Source of the DNA: Planctomycetota bacterium
GTDB taxonomy: Bacteria; Planctomycetota; MHYJ01; WSZJ01
Direction: 5' to 3'
DNA: 64,000 bases
Assembly: GCA_038060895.1 (NCBI GenBank)
Contig: JBBTCT010000002.1
Coordinates: 64,001-128,000, forward strand
Position 1 is the stretch's first letter. Each line of letters begins with the position of its first letter. Shown here piece by piece: positions 40,040-51,266 of the stretch. The position numbers were made by a program, and so were the translations under genes. Below the pieces are notes generated by a model. It saw only the letters and a list, made by a program, of their open reading frames with translations, was not told where the DNA came from and made no database searches.

Positions 40040-40196
40040 AACTTCAACTCACAATTTCAACTCACAATTTCCAAGCAAACGGAGAACTACAAGACGACAA
40101 CTTCAAGTTCCTGCGTCGAATGGCTGTTCTTGAAGTTGGCTTCTTGTAGTTCTCCGTTTGCTTGGAAATTGTGAGTTGAAGTTGTGAGTTGAAGTT
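40040..40196. repeat. Long inverted repeat, 55-bp arms (54/55)
   Basis: 40040-40094 pairs with 40142-40196; inner 10-bp stem 40098-40107/40129-40138; periodic AACTTC/AACTCAC units. Confidence 0.92.
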
Positions 40197-40232
40197 GTCC
40201 GTCCCCGGAGGCCACCCCATCCGCGGTCGCAG

Positions 40233-42041
40233 CTACTTCAGCGAGTCAAAGTAGTCTTTGACCGCCCGCCGGTACTCCTCAGGGTACGCCTCGTCATCCA
40301 TCGCTTTTTCCATGTCCGCTCGATACTTCAGCAGCACCTTCTCGAACGGCACGCTGGCCGTTCCCTCTTCGGCGTCCGCATACCCGCCGTCGCCGACGAC
40401 TTCGCCGGGGTCGCCCGCCCCCGAGGGGACTTCCACCTGCTCGTCGTGGAACTCGACCGGCTTGCGCGCGCGCTCTTTTCCCATCACCTTGTTCTTGTGC
40501 CCGCCGCCGGGACCAGGGCCGCCTTCGCCGTCCTCGACCCACTCCTCGTCGTCGCCGCCGTCGTCACCTTTGCCACCTGCCAGCTTGTTCTGCGCCTTGC
40601 GCGAAGCGCGTCCCGCCCGGCCGAGCGCCAGTTCCCCTTTCGATCCGAGGCCGCGAATCCAGCGGCCCATTCCGCCTCCACCCTTTCAGGAACCGCCGGG
40701 ACAGTTCTTCTGCAGCTCCTCGGCGAGCTTCTTCAGGTCCTCTTCCGACATGTTCTTGAGCATTTCGGCGAGCTTCTTCAGCTCCTCCGTATCCATCTCC
40801 TTGATCTTCTCGATGAGCTCTCTCAGTTTCTCGTCGTCCATCGCGTTCTCGTCGCCGCCCTGGCCGAGCTTTCTCGAAAGCCGCGCCAGCCGGTCCAGCG
40901 CTTCCTGCACGTCTTTGTCGTCCCAGCCCTTCGCCTTCAGCAGCTTTTCAAGCTCCTTGAGCAGCTTCTCGTCCATCTTGCCCGCGTTCTTCTTCCGGTC
41001 CTCCGCGTCCCTCTTCGCCTGCTCCGCGCCGTTCTTCGAGAGCCCGTTCCAGCGCTCCCGCGCTTTCTTCATCGCTTCTTCGAACGCCTTCTTGTCCCCC
41101 CGCCGCGCCGCCTCCGCCGCTTTCTTCAGCGCCTCCGCGAGTTCCTTGTCCTTCCCCGCCGCCTTTGCCGCCCGCTCCAGCGCTTCCGCGAGCTTCATGT
41201 CGTCCGCCGGATTCTGCCCCAGTTTCGCCGCCGCATCCGCCGCCGCCTGCGCGCCGTTCCCCTGCGACGTCCGGTGCCCGAGATCGTGCGACCCGGAATT
41301 CTCCGCCATCAGCGCCAGCGCATCCTTCCGCGCCGCCGCCTTCTCCTTCTCCTCGCGGATCTTCTCGCCCACCTCGCCGATCCGCGCCAGCGCTTCCTTC
41401 CGGTCGATCTTCCCTTCGCGCCACGCCTCGTCGATCCGCTCCAGTTCCTTCCCCAGCTCCGCCAGCCGCGGATCCCCGTCCTCCGCCCCCGCCTGCCTCA
41501 ATTCCTCCGCAGCCGCCAGCATCTCCGGCGGCGCTTCCAGCCCTTTCAGGTCGCTGGGCAGCCCGGCGATGGCCGGAAGCGACCGCTCCGGCACGAGGAA
41601 GAGCAGCGCGGCGATCACCGCGGCTGTCACGAGGGACCAGCGCGACAGCCTCGGGAAGCGCGTCGCGAACATCTTGCGTTCATCCGGCAGCGGCCTCGAA
41701 GCGGCATCACGCTCGACCAGCGCGGCCCACTCCGTGCCCTCCAGTTCCAGCGCCGTCGAGAAGCGGTCGTCGCTTCCGGTCGCGCGGTCCGCCGCGCGCG
41801 CGACATCCGCCAGAGGGATCTTGCTCATCAGCCTCACCGCAAACGCGATCGCCGGCACCGCGACAAACGCCCCGGCCGCGATCCACATCGGCTGCGGCCA
41901 GTGCCAGAGCTTCGCGCCCCCGACATACCCCGCCGCAATCGCCGCCCCGCCGAACGACCCGAAGACCGCCGCGCGCACCGCAGCCTGCATGCGCAGGCGC
42001 TTTTCCCAGGCATTCAACCGGTCGCGGAGGATGGCGTTCAT
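40233..42041 (-). CDS. Membrane-anchored coiled-coil protein with in-frame TGA at 40686-40688 (candidate selenoprotein/readthrough; alternatively two genes)
   Basis: ORFs 40686-42041 and 40233-40670 share a frame; C-terminal PEEYRRAVKDYF typical of such proteins in VWA/DUF58 clusters. Confidence 0.6.
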
Positions 42042-42895: not shown

Positions 42896-43228
42896 CTAAC
42901 CCACGAGCTCAAAGAGTCCATCGACGATCTGGTCCACCGCCGCCTCTTCGACTCTTCCTGCTTTTCGCTTCAGGCGATCGCTGTCCATGGTCCGAACCTG
43001 CCCGATCTTGACCCACGAAGGCTTGGGAAGAGTCCGCTCCGGGAGTGCAGCGACGAGTGGGAACCCCGCCTTCGGAGGCTGACTGGTGACCGCGAGGGCG
43101 ATGACGGTGCCACCGGCGTTGAAGGTCTCGTGGCTGATGACAAGCACGGGCCGGTCGCCGGCCTGTTCATGTCCCCGAACCTGTCCGATTTCGGCCCACC
43201 ACAGATCCCCTCTCAATACTCGGGCCAC
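42896..43228 (-). CDS. mazF: PemK/MazF family toxin
   Basis: RGDLWW..GHEQAGDRPVLVIS..QVRT. Confidence 0.9.
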   Translation of the reverse strand: MARVLRGDLWWAEIGQVRGHEQAGDRPVLVISHETFNAGGTVIALAVTSQPPKAGFPLVAALPERTLPKPSWVKIGQVRTMDSDRLKRKAGRVEEAAVDQIVDGLFELVG

Positions 43229-43452
43229 GTTGTCTCTCCCTTGAGCCGCTCATTGGCGAGTGCCTTCTCTCCGCGGCGGCTCAGTTTGGCTATCTCTCGC
43301 GCGAGCCGTGTGCGCTTGCGCCGCTCGACCGTCTCGCGGACAGCCTCTTGGATGGCGCGGCTCCGGCTCGGAAATCTGCCCTCGGAGACCCAGCGATCGA
43401 GGAGATCGAGGAGGGTGCGGTCGAGGGTGATGGCGATCTTTGCCGCGGGCAT
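43213..43452 (-). CDS. Ribbon-helix-helix (CopG) antitoxin
   Basis: KIAITLD..FPSRSRAIQEAV; overlaps toxin start. Confidence 0.85.
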   Translation of the reverse strand: MPAAKIAITLDRTLLDLLDRWVSEGRFPSRSRAIQEAVRETVERRKRTRLAREIAKLSRRGEKALANERLKGETTWPEY

Positions 43453-43512: not shown

Positions 43513-44988
43513 CTATCGAGCCGCCTTCCTCGCCAGCTCCGCAACGGCTGCCCGCTCGACGGTGGAGAGCCAGGCCCCTTCCTCCCGCTCCAGGGCGGAA
43601 AAGTCGGTCAGCAGGCTCGGCGCGGCCTGCAGCGCCTTTCGCCACCACGCGAGGGCTTCTTCCTCGTGACCGAGGCGGAGTTCGCAAAGTGCCATGCCAA
43701 GCCAGACATGCTTGCGCAGCACCGTGCTCTTGCTTTCCTGAAGCAACTTGAGGACTCCGAAGGACTCTTCGAATCGAGTCAGGTCCCACAGGAGATAGGC
43801 GAAGTTGAGCCGCGCTTCCTCGGAAAGTGAAGCGGTGTCTCGGTTTCTGAAGGCGCGTCGGAAGTCCGCTTCAGCCTCCGCAAGCTGTCCCATCTGATGG
43901 AGCAGGAAGGCTCGATCCGTGAGGATGAGCTCGGCCGAGGGCGTCGTGCTCGAAACGGCCCGAGAGAGAGTTGCGGAGAAATCCAGGAGGGCTTCTTCCA
44001 ATCGCTTCAGTTTCCAGAGCGCGCGCCCGCGGCAGAATCGCGCCGTGAAGTGATCAGGATCAAGGGCGAGCGAAGCGTTGAAATCTGCGAGCGCGTTGTC
44101 GTCGTGGTTGAGAGCAAAGGATGCCAGCCCGCGATCTACGATGGCCGTCGCGTCGAGGGGTCTCAACCTGCAGGCGGTTTCGAAATCCGCGCGGGCGAGG
44201 TCCCAGTGACCTTGCGCCATCGAGGCCCGCCCCCGTTTGCCAAGGGCGTGGCCGGTGACGTGGCGGAGAAGGAAGGGTTCGAACTCAATCCGCGCTGCCT
44301 CGGCGGCGTCGAGGATGCGCGAGAGTTGCTCGATGGCCTCCTGGTACTTTCCCGCGAAGAAACTCCGGTCGGCAGCGGCCATCGACCCCGGGAGCGGCTC
44401 AAGTTGGCGGCGCCGGCGGACCTCATCATGCTTCTCTCGCATATCACCCAAGGGGTCGAAGTAACGGTTGGGGTCTTCACGAACCTCTGAGAGCCGCGCG
44501 ATCGTTCGGCCGAACGCATCGCCGGAGCTGACGGAGATCCAGCCCGGATCGAGGTGAATCGCGGGGTCGTTCACCTCGACGCCGTCCTCGCCCCACTGTC
44601 CGCTCAGCACCAGCACGAGGTAGAGCTTCTTCATCGCGAGCCGTCGAATTGCGTCGCGTGCGGCGTCGGGCCCACGGTGCTCCCTGACGCCAGGCATGAT
44701 CAACAAGTCCGCATCGCACGCCGCCGCGCGAAAGGCTGTTTCCGCCGAGAAGAGATCCCCCACCTCAAGGTAAGCGTCACCGAGCGCCATCTGGATCGAA
44801 ATCGACCGGGGATCCATCCCGGCGGCCATCTGCAACAGCTCCAGGCCGAGTGCGGGCTGGCCGCACTTCACGAGGTCGCTTCCGCGCATCGCGAAGTCCT
44901 CTGCGTCTGTGGCTGGCGGAACCTTGGTTGCCCGCCCCGAGCAACCGACAGCCGACAGGAACACAATGGAAAAAAGGATAGGCCTCAT
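43513..44988 (-). CDS. TPR-repeat lipoprotein
   Basis: Lipobox SAVGC; repeated RG..A..DF..A..L.P. Confidence 0.85.
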   Translation of the reverse strand: MRPILFSIVFLSAVGCSGRATKVPPATDAEDFAMRGSDLVKCGQPALGLELLQMAAGMDPRSISIQMALGDAYLEVGDLFSAETAFRAAACDADLLIMPGVREHRGPDAARDAIRRLAMKKLYLVLVLSGQWGEDGVEVNDPAIHLDPGWISVSSGDAFGRTIARLSEVREDPNRYFDPLGDMREKHDEVRRRRQLEPLPGSMAAADRSFFAGKYQEAIEQLSRILDAAEAARIEFEPFLLRHVTGHALGKRGRASMAQGHWDLARADFETACRLRPLDATAIVDRGLASFALNHDDNALADFNASLALDPDHFTARFCRGRALWKLKRLEEALLDFSATLSRAVSSTTPSAELILTDRAFLLHQMGQLAEAEADFRRAFRNRDTASLSEEARLNFAYLLWDLTRFEESFGVLKLLQESKSTVLRKHVWLGMALCELRLGHEEEALAWWRKALQAAPSLLTDFSALEREEGAWLSTVERAAVAELARKAAR

Positions 44989-45075
44989 CCGGGGAACGAT
45001 ATCAATTCTCTACCCGCGGCAAGGCCCGCAGTTTTTTGGCGGCTCCCCTGCTTCCGCGCCGCTACATTCCCTTTC

Positions 45076-48000
45076 ATGCTCTCCGTCCGCACAGGCTCCT
45101 ATCGCTCCCTCGAGGAAGAACTCGTCGGGCGGTTGCGCCTTCGACCGCCGCTCGAGCCGGCGTGGGTCGTGGTGCCGTCGCGGCACGTGCGCGGGCGGTT
45201 GCAGCGGGCGATGGCGGCTTCGGGCGGGCTCGCGAACGTCTTCCTGCCGGATTTCCATGCGCTGGCGCGGATGATTGTCGAGGAAGCCGGGATCGACATC
45301 CCGCCGCTGGTGGAGGACGTGGGGGAAGAGGAAATCTTTCGCGCGTTCCTGCGCGAGCCGGGGGCGTCCGAGCGGTATCGCGTGCTGGCGGACCGGCCGG
45401 GGGCGGGAGCGCTTCTCAGAACGGTCGCCGACCTCCGCGCGGCCGTGATCGCGCCGCCGCTTCTGCGCGAGGTTAAGGAGGAACTTCCCGAGGACGCGCA
45501 GCGGCTTGCGGAGCTGGCGGGGCTGCTGGAGGCCTACGGGAACTTCCTGAAAAAGCTCGGATACATGACGCGCTCGGACGTCGCGCGCGTGGCGGCGGTG
45601 GAAGCGGAGAAGTCGCGGCTCGTGAAAGAGGCCGCGGCGTGGAACGTGTACGGCTTCTACGAGTTCCTCGGCGAGCAGAAGGACCTGCTGGACGCGCTTT
45701 CGCGCGAGACCGACGCGACGGTGTTCATCCCGTACCGCGAAGGCCCGGCGTACGCCCTGTCGGAGCGCACGCTCAACGAGGACTTCGGCGCGGCGCGCGC
45801 CCGGCAGGGCGGGTTCATCGCGCCGGCCGAGGGCGGAGTGGCCATGGAAGCGCTGAGGACGAGGGCGCCGAAGCCGAAGATCCTGAAAGGCGACGGCGCG
45901 CCGAGGACGGGGATTTTCCGCGCGACGGCGTTCACGCAGAGGCTGTTCGACCCGGGCGAAGCGCCGATCAAGTCGGGCACGGCGATCCCCGCGGTGACGT
46001 GCGGGGGGATGGCGGACGAGGTCTGGTACGCCGTGAAGGAAGCGCGCCGCGTGCACGAGTCCGAGGGCGTCGCCTGGCGCGACATTGCGATCGTCGCGCG
46101 CACCCTCGACCGCCGGCTGCACCTGGCCGCGCGTTACTTCCGCGAAGAGGGCGTGCCGTGGTGGACTCCCGCTTCCCAGCCGCTGGCCGAACGGCCGCTC
46201 GCGCAGGCGGCGTCGCTGGCGGCGCGGCTCCTGCTCGACGAGGCCTATCATCTCGACGTGCTCGAGTGGTTCTCGTCGCCGCTGGTGAAAGAAGAAGCGC
46301 GGGCAGACCGGTGGGGGGAGATCGCGCGAGCGCTGGGGATCGTTTCGGCGGACGACTGGAAGCGGCTGTCGGCGGCGCGCGGGGCGGATCTGGCGGACGT
46401 GGACGGCAACGTGGTCGCCGCGGCGGAAGCGGTGGATGCGTTCGCGGGCGCCGTTGACGCACTGCGTCAATCGCTGCCCGGGGCGGAAGGAAAGCGCGGC
46501 TGGGCCACGCTCGCGGCGGCATGGGAACGCTTCCTCGGCGACCGGCTCGACGCGAAGAAGGACGAGGCCGCGTGGAAGTCGCTCCAGGACATCCTTCACT
46601 CGCTGGCCGCGCTCGAGAACGCAGGCGCGCCGCCCGACGGGCGCTCGTTCGCGGCGGCGTTCGCGCGCGGGATCGCCGCGGAAAAGATCCCGGTCCACCC
46701 GATCCCCGCCGACGGCGTCGCTTTCCTCGACGCCATGCAGCTGCGCGGCCAGCGCTTCCGCGTCGCCGTCCTCCTCGGCCTCAACGAGCGCGACTGGCCC
46801 GCGGTGCCGCGCGAAGACCCGTACCTGCCGGATGCTTCGCGCCGCAGGATCGCCGGTGCGACCGGATGCCGGCTGCGCGAGCGGATGGAGCGGACGTCGG
46901 AAGAGCGGATGCTGTTTGCGTTCGCGCTCGACTGCTGCGACCGGGCGGTGCTGGTGTCGCGGCGGGTGGACGACGAAGGGCGCAAGGAAGCGCCGTCTGC
47001 GTACCTGGACGAGATCCGGCGGGTCGTGCACGTCGAGGACAAAGCGGGCGTGCCGCGGCTGGCGACGAGGAAGTTCGAGCGGAAGCTCGGCTGGCTGACG
47101 TGGACCGAGCAGCGGCTGCGCGCGATCCTGACCGGCGGCGTCGACGCGGACCCGGCGGTGCTGAAAGCCAAGGCCCTCGAGGACTGCGGCGGCTGGAACG
47201 CGTTCGACCAGCTCTCCGCGCCGCCGCAGGCGCACATCGACAGAGTCGCCGAGCGCGGACTCTCGCCGACCGCGCTTCAGAACCTCGCGACCTGCCCCTT
47301 CCAGTACTGGGCGCGCAACGTGACGAAACTGGAGGTGCTCGACCCGCGCGAGGCCGAAGAAGACGTCACCGCGCGCGAGGTCGGCTCGGTGCTGCACGAA
47401 GCGCTCGCGGACCGGAGCGGCGCGGACCCGGTGGAGCTCGCCCGCGAGATTTTCCGGCGGCGCGCGCAGAAACGTCCGCCGCTGCGGTACGCGGTCTGGG
47501 AAGCGGCGCGCGATGCGGGTCTCAAGGCGCTGGCGGCGCTGGTCGCGCAGGACCGCGCGGAGCTGCAGTCCGGCGGATGGACGGTCGCGCACGCCGAATT
47601 GGCTCTGCCGCTTCTCGCCGGGCCGAAGCCGCTTCCCGGCCTGCACGGCCGCGTGGACCGCGTGGAGACGCGGGAGACGAAAGGCGGGCTGGAGTTCCGG
47701 GTGACGGACTTCAAGTACAAGCTGTCGAAGAGGCCGCCGGTCGAGGGGAAGGACGAAAAGGTCGAGGAGAAGACGCTCGACGACGTGCTGCGCGGGAAGC
47801 AGGTGCAGCTCGCCGCGTACGCGCGGCTCGTGGCCGCGCACCTCGGGCCGAAGGCAACGTTCGCGGGGGCGCACTTCTATTTCTTCGGACCGCGCTTTGA
47901 GCCCGCGCGGCGCGGGCTGCTCGCGCGCAACGGCGAGGAGGAGCTGTCCTCGCTCGCGCCGCGCGCCTGGGAAATGGCCGCGCAGGGCCGCTTCGTCGTC

Positions 48001-48129
48001 GTCGACGACGACAAGGTCTGCCCGCGGTGCGAGATCCACACGGTCTGCCGGCGGGGGCACTTTGCGACCCGCACGCGCGCCCTGAACGATCCGCGCGCGA
48101 AGGCGTTCGCCGACGGGAGGTTCGCGTGA
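45076..48129 (+). CDS. addB: AddB-like helicase-nuclease subunit with Fe-S staple
   Basis: LSPTAL..CPFQ, GRVDRV..DFK, CPRCEIHTVC; coupled to addA. Confidence 0.85.
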   Translation: MLSVRTGSYRSLEEELVGRLRLRPPLEPAWVVVPSRHVRGRLQRAMAASGGLANVFLPDFHALARMIVEEAGIDIPPLVEDVGEEEIFRAFLREPGASERYRVLADRPGAGALLRTVADLRAAVIAPPLLREVKEELPEDAQRLAELAGLLEAYGNFLKKLGYMTRSDVARVAAVEAEKSRLVKEAAAWNVYGFYEFLGEQKDLLDALSRETDATVFIPYREGPAYALSERTLNEDFGAARARQGGFIAPAEGGVAMEALRTRAPKPKILKGDGAPRTGIFRATAFTQRLFDPGEAPIKSGTAIPAVTCGGMADEVWYAVKEARRVHESEGVAWRDIAIVARTLDRRLHLAARYFREEGVPWWTPASQPLAERPLAQAASLAARLLLDEAYHLDVLEWFSSPLVKEEARADRWGEIARALGIVSADDWKRLSAARGADLADVDGNVVAAAEAVDAFAGAVDALRQSLPGAEGKRGWATLAAAWERFLGDRLDAKKDEAAWKSLQDILHSLAALENAGAPPDGRSFAAAFARGIAAEKIPVHPIPADGVAFLDAMQLRGQRFRVAVLLGLNERDWPAVPREDPYLPDASRRRIAGATGCRLRERMERTSEERMLFAFALDCCDRAVLVSRRVDDEGRKEAPSAYLDEIRRVVHVEDKAGVPRLATRKFERKLGWLTWTEQRLRAILTGGVDADPAVLKAKALEDCGGWNAFDQLSAPPQAHIDRVAERGLSPTALQNLATCPFQYWARNVTKLEVLDPREAEEDVTAREVGSVLHEALADRSGADPVELAREIFRRRAQKRPPLRYAVWEAARDAGLKALAALVAQDRAELQSGGWTVAHAELALPLLAGPKPLPGLHGRVDRVETRETKGGLEFRVTDFKYKLSKRPPVEGKDEKVEEKTLDDVLRGKQVQLAAYARLVAAHLGPKATFAGAHFYFFGPRFEPARRGLLARNGEEELSSLAPRAWEMAAQGRFVVVDDDKVCPRCEIHTVCRRGHFATRTRALNDPRAKAFADGRFA

Positions 48130-51100
48130 CCAGCGACGCGGGCGCGAGGCGGGACGCGGTGGTGCGCACGGACGAGAACGTCGTCCTGCGGGCGAGCGCC
48201 GGCACGGGCAAGACGACGGTGCTGGTCGAGCGGATGGCGTGTCTGCTCTTGCGCGAGAAGCTGGACCCCGAGCTGCTCGTCGCGATCACGTTCACCGAAA
48301 TGGCCGCGGCCGAGATGAAGACGCGCCTGCGGCGGCGCCTGATGGACGCGTTCCGGTGGGGCATGGGCGAGGACCCGAAGAACGCGTTCGACGAGACAAT
48401 CCTCTCCGCGGGGCGCGACGCCATCGCCGAGCGCGCGCACACCGCGCTCGACCGGCTCGACCGCGCGGCGATCGAGACGATGCACGCGTTCGCGGGGCGG
48501 CTGCTGCGGATGTTCCCCGAGGAAGCCGGCGTGGACGCGGCCTTCGCGATCGAGGACACGACGGCCGTGGAGGAAGCGCTTCATCGCGACTGGGCCGCGT
48601 GGTCGCGCGAGGAGTTCGCGGCCGGCGCCCCGAATCACGCGCGCTGGCGCCCGGTCCTCGCGACGCTTCAGTGGATCAAGGTGCAGGAACTCGCGTTCCG
48701 GCTTGCGGACTGGGAAGACATCCCGACCGATCCGGGCGCCGTGCCGCAGGACTCGAAGGCGTGGCACGAAGCGCTTCTTGCCGGGATGGAGCCGCTCGTC
48801 GCGCACGCCGAAGGAAAGACGAAGCGCGTGACGTCCGTGATGCAGCAGGCCCGCGCGGCGATGGAGATTCTTGCGAGGGTGAAGGCCGGCGGCTGGCGGC
48901 CCCTGGACACGGCGGACGACCGCTTCGAGGATTCGTTCAGCGACAGCTACAAGTCCACGGGCTGGACCGACGACGAGTGGATGGCCGCGAAGGCCGCGTA
49001 CGACGCGGCGCGCGCGTGGGCCTCGACGCGCACGGAAGCGGTCGAGGCCGTGCGGCTGCTCACGGGCTTCGCGACCTTCCACCGCGAGCAGAGCCTCAAC
49101 GCAGGGCGGCTGTCGTTCAACGCGCTGCTCTTCCTCGCGCGCGACCTGCTGCGCCGCAAGCCTCACGCCGCGCGGCGTTTCGAAAAACACCGCTTCCTCG
49201 TGGACGAATTCCAGGACACGGACGCGCGGCAGGCGGAGATCGTGCTGCGGCTTTCGTCGCCGCCGGCGGCCGAGCCGGAAGCGGACTGGCGCGCGCTGCG
49301 GCCGCGGCCGGGCGCGGTGTTCATCGTGGGCGACGGGAAGCAGTCGATCTATGCGTGGCGAAGCGCCGACCTGGGCGTGTACGACGCGGTGAGTGAGCAG
49401 TTGGTCGCGGCGGGAGCGCTGCCCCGCGAGCTCTCGGACAATTTCCGCTCGCAGCCGGCAGTGATCGACGCCGCGAACCGCGTTTTCGGGACGGCATTCG
49501 TGGAGGAGCCCGGGATCCAGGCGGCGCCCGCGGATCTCGTCGCGGCGCGGCTGCCGAAGCCGCTCAACGGGCGCGTGGTCGCTCTTCGGACCGCGAAAAC
49601 CGATGGGAAGGCGCCGGCGCTCGCCGCCGCCGAGGCCCTCGGGATCGCCAACTGGATCAACGACGTGCGCGGCAAGCTGCGCATCGAGGTCGAGGACGGC
49701 GACGCGACGGTTGCGAAACCGATCCGCTTCCGCGACATCGCGATCCTGCTCCGCGCGTCCACGTACCTGCCGCAGTACCTGCAGGCGCTTCGGACGGCGA
49801 AGATCCCTTACGTCGTGACGCGCGAGCAGCACTTCTACGAGGCGCAGGAGGTGCGCGACGCGATCAATCTCCTGGTCGCGCTCGTGCGCCCCGACGACGC
49901 GCTCGCGCTCGCGGGCGTGATGCGCTCGCCCGTCGGCGGGCTGACGTTCGACGACGTGCACGCCGCCGGCCGTCCGGACTTCCGCAGGAACGCGCCGGGA
50001 AAAGCGGGCGACCTCTTCGCGAAACTGCGCGACCTGCGATCGCTCGCGCTGCGCCTGCCGGTTCCGGAAGCGGTGGACCTCGTGCTCGAAGACTCCGGCC
50101 TGCGCGCCGCCGCCGCCGCTTCGGCCCACGGCGAGCAGGCGTTGGCCAACCTCGACAAGGTCGCGGCGCTCGCCGCGCGCTGGGCGGCGCCCGAGCTGAC
50201 GCTCGGCGCGTTCGCCGACCGCCTCGGCCGCCGGCTGCGCGACGTCGAGCGCGAGGCAGAGTCGCCCCTCGGCGAGCCGGACGACGAGGTCGTGCGCGTC
50301 TCCACGATCCACGCCGCCAAGGGGCTCGAGTGGCCGGTCGTCATCCTCGCCGGGCTTCACTCCGTCCCGCGCGGCGCCACCGTGGACGATCCGGTCCTTT
50401 CCGACCCTTCCGGTTTCGCCGCGAAAGCCGGCGACGCCACCACGCCGGGCTGGGCGTTCCTCGCCGACCGCCGCCGCCGCCGGAGCGAGGCCGAGAACAC
50501 GCGCCTCTTTTACGTCGCCTGCACGCGGGCGCGCGAGGCCCTCGTCCTGTCGCGTGCGGGCGACAAGCAGGGGCCTTTCCTCAAGAATCTCCCGGCGGGA
50601 ATCTTTGCGGAAGAGGACGCCGACATCGCGCCGCGTCCCTCCGGCACGATCATCCCACCGGTCGCGTTCCCGCCCGAGGAGGAGCGCGAGAAGTGGGACC
50701 GGGTGCGCTCGGACTACGAGAAACTGATGAAGCTCCCGTCGATCGATTCGCCGACGGGGATGATGCACCGCGAGGACGACGCGCCCGACCGGCACGGCCA
50801 CGCGTGGGATTCGCGCTCTGCGAAACAGATCGGCGTCGTCGTGCACTCGGTGCTCGAGAACTGGAAGTTCGAGGGCGACGACCTCGACCGAGCCCTCACG
50901 CGCGCCGGCGCGGATCTGCGCGCGACCGACCAGGCGGCCGTGCTTCCGCGCGCCCGCGAACTGCTTCAGTCGTTCCTCAAATCGCCGGACGCTGTCGAGA
51001 TCGCCGCTTCCCAGATTCTCGGCCGCGAAGTTCCCTTCTCGATGCCCCTCCAGGACGGCCGCTGCATCATCGGCGTCATCGACCTCGTGTTCGAGAAGGA

Positions 51101-51266
51101 CGGCAAGCTGCACGTGCGCGACTACAAGACCGGCGGCGAGAACCGGAAGTACGAGACGCAGCAGGGAATCTACGTCGCCGCGATGAAGAAGCTGTTTCCG
51201 GGGAAGGAGATCGCGTTCCGGTTCCTGTACATCGGCGGGAGCGGAGTTGCCACGCCAAGGGCGTAG
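48126..51266 (+). CDS. addA: AddA-like UvrD helicase + RecB-type nuclease
   Basis: ASAGTGKTT, DEFQD, GDGKQSIY, TIHAAKGLE, YVACTRA, GVIDL..DYKT. Confidence 0.92.
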   Translation: MTSDAGARRDAVVRTDENVVLRASAGTGKTTVLVERMACLLLREKLDPELLVAITFTEMAAAEMKTRLRRRLMDAFRWGMGEDPKNAFDETILSAGRDAIAERAHTALDRLDRAAIETMHAFAGRLLRMFPEEAGVDAAFAIEDTTAVEEALHRDWAAWSREEFAAGAPNHARWRPVLATLQWIKVQELAFRLADWEDIPTDPGAVPQDSKAWHEALLAGMEPLVAHAEGKTKRVTSVMQQARAAMEILARVKAGGWRPLDTADDRFEDSFSDSYKSTGWTDDEWMAAKAAYDAARAWASTRTEAVEAVRLLTGFATFHREQSLNAGRLSFNALLFLARDLLRRKPHAARRFEKHRFLVDEFQDTDARQAEIVLRLSSPPAAEPEADWRALRPRPGAVFIVGDGKQSIYAWRSADLGVYDAVSEQLVAAGALPRELSDNFRSQPAVIDAANRVFGTAFVEEPGIQAAPADLVAARLPKPLNGRVVALRTAKTDGKAPALAAAEALGIANWINDVRGKLRIEVEDGDATVAKPIRFRDIAILLRASTYLPQYLQALRTAKIPYVVTREQHFYEAQEVRDAINLLVALVRPDDALALAGVMRSPVGGLTFDDVHAAGRPDFRRNAPGKAGDLFAKLRDLRSLALRLPVPEAVDLVLEDSGLRAAAAASAHGEQALANLDKVAALAARWAAPELTLGAFADRLGRRLRDVEREAESPLGEPDDEVVRVSTIHAAKGLEWPVVILAGLHSVPRGATVDDPVLSDPSGFAAKAGDATTPGWAFLADRRRRRSEAENTRLFYVACTRAREALVLSRAGDKQGPFLKNLPAGIFAEEDADIAPRPSGTIIPPVAFPPEEEREKWDRVRSDYEKLMKLPSIDSPTGMMHREDDAPDRHGHAWDSRSAKQIGVVVHSVLENWKFEGDDLDRALTRAGADLRATDQAAVLPRARELLQSFLKSPDAVEIAASQILGREVPFSMPLQDGRCIIGVIDLVFEKDGKLHVRDYKTGGENRKYETQQGIYVAAMKKLFPGKEIAFRFLYIGGSGVATPRA

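Follow-up and report, generated by a model that had tools for sequence, protein, structure and literature searches.

An in-frame UGA as a probable selenocysteine codon in a Planctomycetota protein family

Does the TGA at positions 40688-40686 of the stretch analysed here terminate a gene, or does it encode an amino acid within one? The stretch (the window) is 64,000 nt of DNA from a Planctomycetota bacterium, positions 64001-128000 of contig C2 in a metagenome-type assembly of 5.4 Mb (47 contigs, 86.5% complete; genome label G000). On its minus strand an open reading frame (ORF) of 451 codons runs from an ATG at 42041 to this TGA, and the same frame then stays free of stops as far as a TAG at 40235-40233; a second ORF of 145 aa, beginning at an ATG at 40670-40668, ends at that same TAG. 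The initial annotation joined these two same-frame ORFs across the single TGA into a protein of 602 residues, an arrangement that the sequence and the ORF list bear out. When the TGA is translated as selenocysteine (Sec, U), the residue is U452, preceded by C447, in the context ...NCPGGS-U-KGGGGMGRWIRGL... or, in its longer form, ...QKN-C447-PGGS-U452-KGGGGMGRWIRGLGS.... From comparative analysis we consider it very probable that the standard bacterial route reads this UGA as Sec and that both ORFs belong to a single gene encoding a selenoprotein of 602 aa, because the genome has the Sec machinery, the TGA and the frame are conserved, a restart codon is absent from relatives, a downstream hairpin co-varies or is lost together with the TGA, and a Cys/Sec pair occurs in the wider family. 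The core of the initial annotation, an unrecognised selenoprotein with a hairpin resembling a selenocysteine insertion sequence (SECIS) and a nearby Cys, was supported by every comparative test that we ran. The features of the locus are as follows.

40233..42041, minus strand: the entire gene with the UGA read as sense, 602 codons followed by the TAG stop (40235-40233); the frame is conserved in relatives with one TGA inside.
40689..42041, minus strand: residues 1-451, comprising an N-terminal helical membrane domain and helical repeats to residue 445 in the AlphaFold model.
40701..40703, minus strand: TGT, Cys447, the partner five residues before Sec (C-x4-U), invariant in seven of seven genus members.
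40686..40688, minus strand: TGA, the predicted selenocysteine U452, in frame in loci L020-L026 and L086.
40668..40679, minus strand: GGAGG (40679-40675) and ATG (40670-40668), a possible restart, found only in L020, L021 and L086.
40649..40667, minus strand: SECIS-like hairpin with a 6-bp stem, GGCCGC/GCGGCC, and the loop UGGAUUC, supported by pairing and synonymous-site conservation.
40236..40685, minus strand: residues 453-602, the Gly-rich linker (446-562) and then a C-terminal two-helix module (566-601) ending YPEEYRRAVKDYFDSLK.

Selenocysteine machinery, hairpin and conservation within the genus

All four components of the Sec route that the initial annotation had proposed looking for were found in the genome, namely a tRNA-Sec (71.7 bits against a cut-off of 47, and called by ARAGORN as SeC with anticodon tca), selA (541 bits), selB (310.7 bits) and selD (364 bits), the three genes each scoring above the curated cut-off. 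The absence of sel genes from the window, which had been noted as a caveat, is thus settled by the remaining genome, and a genome devoid of Sec machinery, which would have spoken against the reading, is not what we found. The selD gene has an in-frame TGA of its own at SSCAG-U-ASKLG, followed by a 6-bp hairpin, GGGUCC-GGC-GGACCU, with 17 nt from the UGA to the start of its GGC loop; this second selenoprotein gene lies at G000:C2:48628-49548, about 15 kb ahead of the window start. A six-frame hidden Markov model search of the whole G000 genome returned the gene under study as the sole member of its family at E <= 1e-5.

All seven of the genus genomes searched, and the metagenome contig L086, keep the in-frame TGA at this position (8/8), the relatives within the genus being 94, 77, 76, 73, 64 and 47% identical to the window protein. 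Around the U, six of the genomes have the motif C-[PAG]-G-G-S-U, and G006 has C-P-P-G-G-D-U. A metagenome search with the closer alignment A2 gave two loci only. One metagenome contig, L087 (about 413-1267; 41% identity), lacks both the TGA and the Cys and has Glu in both columns, and may be regarded as a natural 'no-Sec' variant of the genus-type protein. G006 (L026/L044) and L087 also have a long tandem array with units of about 12 residues (GKDPKNGGSETA and GKDPKEGGSETA) inserted in the helical region, which extends the G006 protein to 793 aa.

The hairpin described in the initial annotation (GGCCGC-UGGAUUC-GCGGCC, 40667-40649) is present and, as had been stated, its loop begins 24 nt downstream of the UGA and has a G at position 2; position 3 is a G as well. 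Bacterial SECIS elements, in the form sought by bSECISearch, consist of a stem-loop whose apical loop lies about 16-37 nt downstream of the UGA and has a G in its first two bases, and the window hairpin fits this description; an Rfam search of 40550-40750 at E <= 10 found no SECIS family, just a chance match to a long non-coding RNA. Taken alone the window hairpin is not more than chance, a comparable pattern being present at 8.4% of 9872 in-frame control positions in family genes, and it is conservation that raises it above chance. Six genus members share the stretch GGCCGC-N-GGATTCGCGGCCTC but for a single base, and only one other perfect run in the gene is longer than its run of 14 nt. Of the seven invariant residues in the hairpin window, six are encoded by an identical codon in every one of these members, versus 96/303 gene-wide. 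All 42 stem-pair cells are paired in the genus, compared with 31-55% in slid controls; 17 of 500 shuffles do as well. In G006 the stem is GGCGAC/GUCGCC, in which two pairs are changed on both sides. L087 retains the residues GDWIRGL, encoded by GGC GAC TGG ATC CGC GGG, with a 3' arm that is unable to pair, so that hairpin, Cys and TGA are lost together in this sequence. The annotation had asked whether homologs have a conserved TGA or Cys at the U column with hairpin covariation, and had named Trp, Arg, Gly, TAA or TAG there as signs against Sec. Conservation of the TGA in the genus and covariation of the hairpin were found, although no Cys was; the residue seen instead, in L087, is Glu, with the Cys and the hairpin also gone.

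Among the alternatives to Sec decoding the one that survives best, though we judge it improbable, is that of two genes, split or translationally coupled, with translation stopping at the TGA and a 145-aa protein initiated at ATG 40670 by means of the GGAGG. This had been raised as a caveat in the initial annotation, and the GGAGG at 40679-40675 does lie 4 nt before the downstream ATG; a GGAGG-N4-ATG six codons after the TGA is found in G000, G002 and L086, and gene callers have produced protein annotations for the piece of 451-460 aa. However, the caveat holds for this sub-clade and not beyond it. L020 and L021 alone have their first in-frame ATG, GTG or TTG at codon 6, whereas in L022-L026 (five of seven loci) Leu or Ala codons replace the ATG and the next start lies 55-91 codons after the TGA, of about 155, within or near the conserved C-terminal part. 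In five within-genus pairs the ratio of non-synonymous to synonymous change (pN/pS) over codons U+1 to U+45 was 0.52-0.58, versus 0.37-0.51 upstream, and in comparison with the distant G006 it was 0.96 against 0.75 upstream; from codon U+46 to the end it was 0.14-0.39, indicative of purifying selection. Because there is no start for 55-91 codons and yet codons U+1 to U+45 are constrained, a two-gene split is untenable for most of the genus. In addition, the frame across the TGA is maintained in every relative seen, a GGAGG readily arises from Gly codons, and in a two-gene arrangement the hairpin would be without a role, yet it co-varies and vanishes together with the TGA.

DNA of this stretch is present in groundwater or aquifer samples. 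Metatranscriptome contigs of one sample flank the TGA on both sides and none bridges 40655-40685; because of this, and because DNA carry-over is possible, these contigs indicate neither expression nor readthrough.

A family with varying numbers of in-frame TGAs

Beyond the genus, we searched 401 sampled genomes of the phylum with a family profile (A1) built from an alignment of eight members, and it matched in 156 of them. In-frame TGAs, one to three each, were present in 29 of the 150 match rows listed (84 more matches lie outside this list), and from these 29 G358 was set aside as its TGA belongs to the N-terminal part. The selA gene is present in every one of the 28 genomes with a linker TGA in the listed match, versus a base rate of 289/401 (matches at E <= 1e-50; 285/401 are above the cut-off), a co-occurrence which is supporting rather than decisive because related genomes are non-independent and the base rate is high. 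Four selA-negative genomes with full-length members were checked (G039, G258, G309 and G376), and these members are TGA-less forms.

The linkers of the TGA-bearing members illustrate the variety of the site. That of G010, a genome of the same taxonomic order as that of the window, reads ECQKCGKKMSETGGT-U-KGGNGQKPGEG-U-KPG. The linker of G028 reads HRCPS-U-GKDAGPSG-U-EGEGSG-U-PGG, with G019 likewise, and that of G025 reads ECPSCGKKKKKGEKGG-U-KGEDGQG-U-PGG, such that the CPS-U-GK of G028 and G019 aligns with CPS-C-GK in G025 and in truncated database representatives; CPSUG versus CPSCG is a clean Cys/Sec pair between close relatives. Others are KCPNCGK...GGT-U-QGSGKPGGT-U-SG (G231), ICPDCLAGKCNAKSGGT-U-SGG (G360) and FCPHGVRIGGT-U-IGCGG (G156). 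The motif GG[TS]-U-[KS]-G recurs in many taxonomic families of the phylum and corresponds to GGS-U-KGG in the window protein. Full-length members without a TGA mostly have Cys knots at the linker, for example CPTCGKK-x14-CGTC or paired CxxCxGxG strings; among 133 TGA-less representatives of at least 480 aa, the last 260 residues contain two Cys in 27, four in 26 and five or more in 42.

A profile search of 1.84 billion representative sequences gave 7805 matches at E <= 1e-3, a number that coiled-coil composition may inflate, and 1109 clusters at E <= 1e-30. The names on the database homologs are Planctomycetota. At least 12 of the best 149 representatives are 390-470 aa long and end exactly at ...GGT, ...GGS, ...CPS, ...GGG and similar (P0010, P0012-P0014, P0018, P0025, P0054, P0068, P0079, P0092, P0093 and P0135), presumably at the residue before a TGA where gene callers met it. 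Their sources call these truncated representatives 'hypothetical protein' or give them names that are coiled-coil artefacts, SbcCD ATPase and EnvC for instance. The database version of the window gene itself ends at residue 451, and its database homologs of 451-460 aa are 'hypothetical protein'. On this evidence the gene appears to be a member of a large Planctomycetota family whose members carry none, one, two or three Sec residues.

The hairpins of this family were compared over 34 linker TGA sites, of which six are related genus sites, with duplicate loci collapsed; the set omits six sites of G008, G015 and G168, the contig L086, and any TGA of a read-through frame that lies outside the linker. 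A positional pattern test was adopted because a comparison of minimum free energy (MFE) was weak. The pattern was a perfect stem of at least 6 bp with the loop starting 14-37 nt after the UGA, and the 9872 in-frame control positions came from the same loci.

Perfect hairpin of at least 6 bp, loop start 14-37 nt after the UGA: 24/34 TGA sites; 12.8% of controls.
The same with, additionally, a G in the first two loop bases: 23/34 TGA sites; 8.4% of controls.
GG within the first three loop bases: 16/34 TGA sites; 2.2% of controls.

The loops include GGUC (G318 and G360, and G028 by RNAfold), GGUA (G025, and G019 by RNAfold) and GGU (G010 and G011), and the stems of G318 and G360 differ in ways that preserve pairing. 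Among the ten sites missing the pattern, some have bulged or G-U-rich stems, which the strict pattern rejects. In the multi-Sec relatives G028 (L032/L040), G025 (L034/L041), G009 (L067), G102 (L077) and G010 (L036/L043) the TGAs are 7-12 codons apart, and the next TGA often falls inside the loop or the 3' arm of the preceding hairpin. In G025 and G028, for example, nested hairpins with the loop GCUGA have the stems GCCAGG/CCUGGC and GCUCGG/CCGGGC respectively, and such arrangements look like nested, tandem SECIS-like elements.

Weighing the selenocysteine reading

Several of these observations bear on a second alternative, less probable still than that of two genes, in which the UGA is recoded independently of Sec, whether by a near-cognate or suppressor tRNA inserting Trp, Cys, Gly or Arg or as a leaky stop yielding a small amount of an extended isoform, with the hairpin only stimulating readthrough. 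A stem-loop downstream of a stop codon can indeed stimulate readthrough, the local fold energy is unremarkable, and L087 tolerates Glu at the U column. However, such recoding is difficult to reconcile with Cys at the TGA-aligned column of close relatives, with selA in every one of the 28 genomes that have linker TGAs, or with G-rich loops at SECIS-like distances. We rejected a genome-wide reassignment of TGA because the selA and selB genes of this genome are free of internal stops. As for a broken gene or an assembly error, arising from a recent nonsense mutation or a sequencing artefact, the fragmented and incomplete metagenome-type assembly might invite this suspicion, but it has a negligible probability, since the TGA is shared by eight independent assemblies (47-94% identity), the sequence from U+46 to the end is under the purifying selection described above, and an error of the kind that the initial annotation had raised is excluded by a contig from an independent DNA run which covers the TGA with zero differences.

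Other results weigh against decoding as Sec and keep our confidence short of certainty. With respect to the hairpin, the energy of the 52-nt fold equals that of shuffled sequences (z = 0.01; 89 of 200 shuffles fold at least as well), and in the 57-nt MFE test across the family only 11 of the 34 sites were at or below the 10th percentile of in-frame control windows, with a median of 0.22. The covariation of the stem comes from one sequence, G006, and because of this it is modest evidence. With respect to the residue itself, the U column of the window protein yielded no homolog with Cys, the sole TGA-less close homolog having Glu; the Cys/Sec pair belongs to another column, in distant members, and linking both columns relies on a low-complexity alignment and the shared GG[ST]-U-KGG motif. 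The Sec region has a predicted local distance difference test (pLDDT) score below 50 in the structural model, and Cys is entirely missing from the last 260 residues of 22 of the 133 full-length representatives without a TGA. Because this sixth of the full-length members does without it, the Cys knot is, judging by sequence, dispensable for the fold and an accessory site rather than part of the fold's core. Finally, selA is common in the phylum (72%), and the GGAGG-N4-ATG of G000 permits a separately initiated 145-aa product in this particular genome.

Predicted architecture, genomic context and relation to known systems

An AlphaFold2 model of the joined protein, made from an alignment of 81 sequences, had a mean pLDDT of 73.1 and a predicted template modelling score (pTM) of 0.37. 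Residues 1-150 form a confident domain (pLDDT above 90) that contains three long hydrophobic helices, 3-46, 52-72 and 133-149, and the segment after the third helix would be extracytoplasmic by the positive-inside rule. Helical repeats continue to residue 445, a low-confidence stretch (446-562) opens at C447/U452, and C-terminal helices occupy 566-601. The initial annotation had placed the Sec within a coiled-coil subunit; the model puts it at the start of a disordered, Gly-rich linker, outside the helical region. Foldseek of the model against the PDB gave no matches at E <= 0.001, and neither Pfam nor NCBIfam gave anything above cut-off for the joined protein, both halves, the eight aligned members or ten all-Cys representatives; NCBIfam on the joined protein returned no families even at E <= 0.01.

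We propose that SelB-GTP-Sec-tRNA(Sec) would bind the hairpin at 40667-40649 while the UGA is in the ribosomal A site, such that Sec452 would be inserted in place of termination. The product would begin with an N-terminal three-helix membrane anchor, continue with helical repeats over some 300 residues, and have C447-x4-U452 where the flexible Gly-rich linker starts, with a small conserved C-terminal helical module at its end. The Cys/Sec pair may be a reduced remnant of the Cys/Sec knot that in relatives takes the form CxxC...CxxC or C-x2-[C/U]...U...U, and it might act as a thiolate/selenolate metal ligand pair or as a selenylsulfide redox couple, roles suggested because the all-Cys members have CxxC-type knots. 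This site would be extracytoplasmic and could work beside the products of the neighbouring ABC-2 transporter and DUF58/VWA genes, which are on the same strand:

39686-38127, minus strand: unknown ORF of 519 aa.
38427-37204, minus strand: GldA-like ABC ATPase.
37207-35552, minus strand: ABC-2 permease.
35870-34677, minus strand: DUF58 protein.
32550-30745, minus strand: VWA/HEAT protein.

ABC and DUF58 genes are also found near the family gene in G028 and G102, and a DUF58 gene near it in G231; the G102 and G231 genomes are near-complete. Of the annotation's proposal that a redox or metal C-x4-U switch operates in a coiled-coil subunit of a VWA/DUF58/ABC complex, it is thus the ABC-2/DUF58 neighbourhood that recurs in distant relatives. 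A broader and distinctly doubtful extension would be that, throughout the phylum, one to three Sec residues replace zinc-knuckle-like Cys in an extracytoplasmic linker, with a hairpin for each UGA and some of these nested, and that selenium supply chooses between a truncated anchor-plus-helix form and the full protein with its C-terminal module, as an isoform switch tied to the ABC-2 and DUF58/VWA genes; the switch is suggested because the UGA lies exactly at a domain boundary.

In comparison with canonical SelB-decoded genes, such as selD here and E. coli fdhF, the window gene shares the in-frame UGA, the nearby Cys, the selA/selB/selC/selD background and a stem-loop within the gene whose G-rich apical loop is some 17-24 nt downstream of the UGA. 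Unlike these, the window protein has no oxidoreductase fold, its Sec being situated in the Gly-rich, predicted disordered linker of a membrane-anchored helical protein, and its hairpin loop is 7 nt long (UGGAUUC) and 7 nt farther from the UGA than that of the genome's own selD. A second comparison is with CxxCxGxG, the DnaJ-type zinc knuckle motif. Many all-Cys family members have paired CxxCxGxG-like strings at the place of the TGA, e.g. CSQCRGEGCSQCNGTG, whereas the window protein has only C-x4-U, and no match to the Pfam DnaJ cysteine-rich domain was found in the 18 members scanned. We also considered DUF4175 (PF13779), a family of low-complexity membrane proteins whose genes likewise occur near DUF58, VWA and MoxR genes: one all-Cys homolog, P0015, gave a sub-threshold match in the helical region (E = 8.5e-4, 17.9 bits versus a cut-off of 27.3), but membership is unsupported, the window protein and the other 16 members scanned being without a match.

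Among known selenoproteins, the excerpts of a 2026 review of 119 prokaryotic families (PMC13188914) describe nearly all families as having a single Sec and a minority as having two or three, the latter including predicted metal-binding proteins such as UxxU NF041115, the FmdB-family UxxU and the UXX-star families, and they suggest Sec as a possible metal-binding ligand. As in the present family, the Sec of these metal-binding proteins, according to the same excerpts, replaces Cys in Cys-knot or metal-ligand motifs; unlike the UxxU proteins, described there with one SECIS, the present family has its Sec codons 7-12 codons apart with a hairpin each, and there is no NCBIfam relationship. The excerpts contain no 'Planctomycet', no GTU/GGTU or GG[TS]-U motif and no 'transmembrane'. 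In a full-text literature search, extending to the accessible parts of PMC12013277 (deep-Sep), PMC13326102 (BSepDB) and PMC4807772 (a planctomycete genome), the family was undescribed, although supplementary tables could list it. These comparisons suggest that it is most likely a new family of bacterial selenoproteins, unusual in its non-enzymatic context, its up to three Sec residues and its closely spaced or nested hairpins.

Because UGA is read as a stop, bacterial selenoproteins suffer from systematic mis-annotation, and every database copy of this gene that we encountered is a truncated 'hypothetical protein'. If the Sec reading is correct, a large family (1109 representative clusters at E <= 1e-30; 156 of 401 sampled phylum genomes) would be added from a phylum hardly mentioned in the portions of selenoproteome surveys consulted, and Sec would be found in an unusual setting that is non-enzymatic, membrane-anchored and of low complexity, with up to three residues per chain. 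The closely spaced UGAs with their own hairpins would also offer a natural test bed for SelB in successive recoding events.

Some minor features of the surrounding DNA may be recorded. The spacer of 546 nt between the TAG of the gene and the next ORF is unusually AT-richer, and at approximately 40169-40197 (minus-strand reading) it contains two overlapping copies of a short direct repeat, CAACTTCAACTCACA. On the other side, a MazF/PemK-like toxin ORF (PF02452, E = 1.6e-24) at 42896-43228 (minus strand) is flanked by the gene for the probable selenoprotein and by a TPR gene (43513-44988), and a short ORF at 43213-43452 (minus strand), upstream of the MazF/PemK-like ORF and overlapping it, may be the antitoxin. 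Farther along on the plus strand is a large gene pair, 44554-48129 and 48027-51266, with a PD-(D/E)XK nuclease domain and with UvrD helicase and nuclease domains, which looks like an AddAB-type helicase-nuclease.

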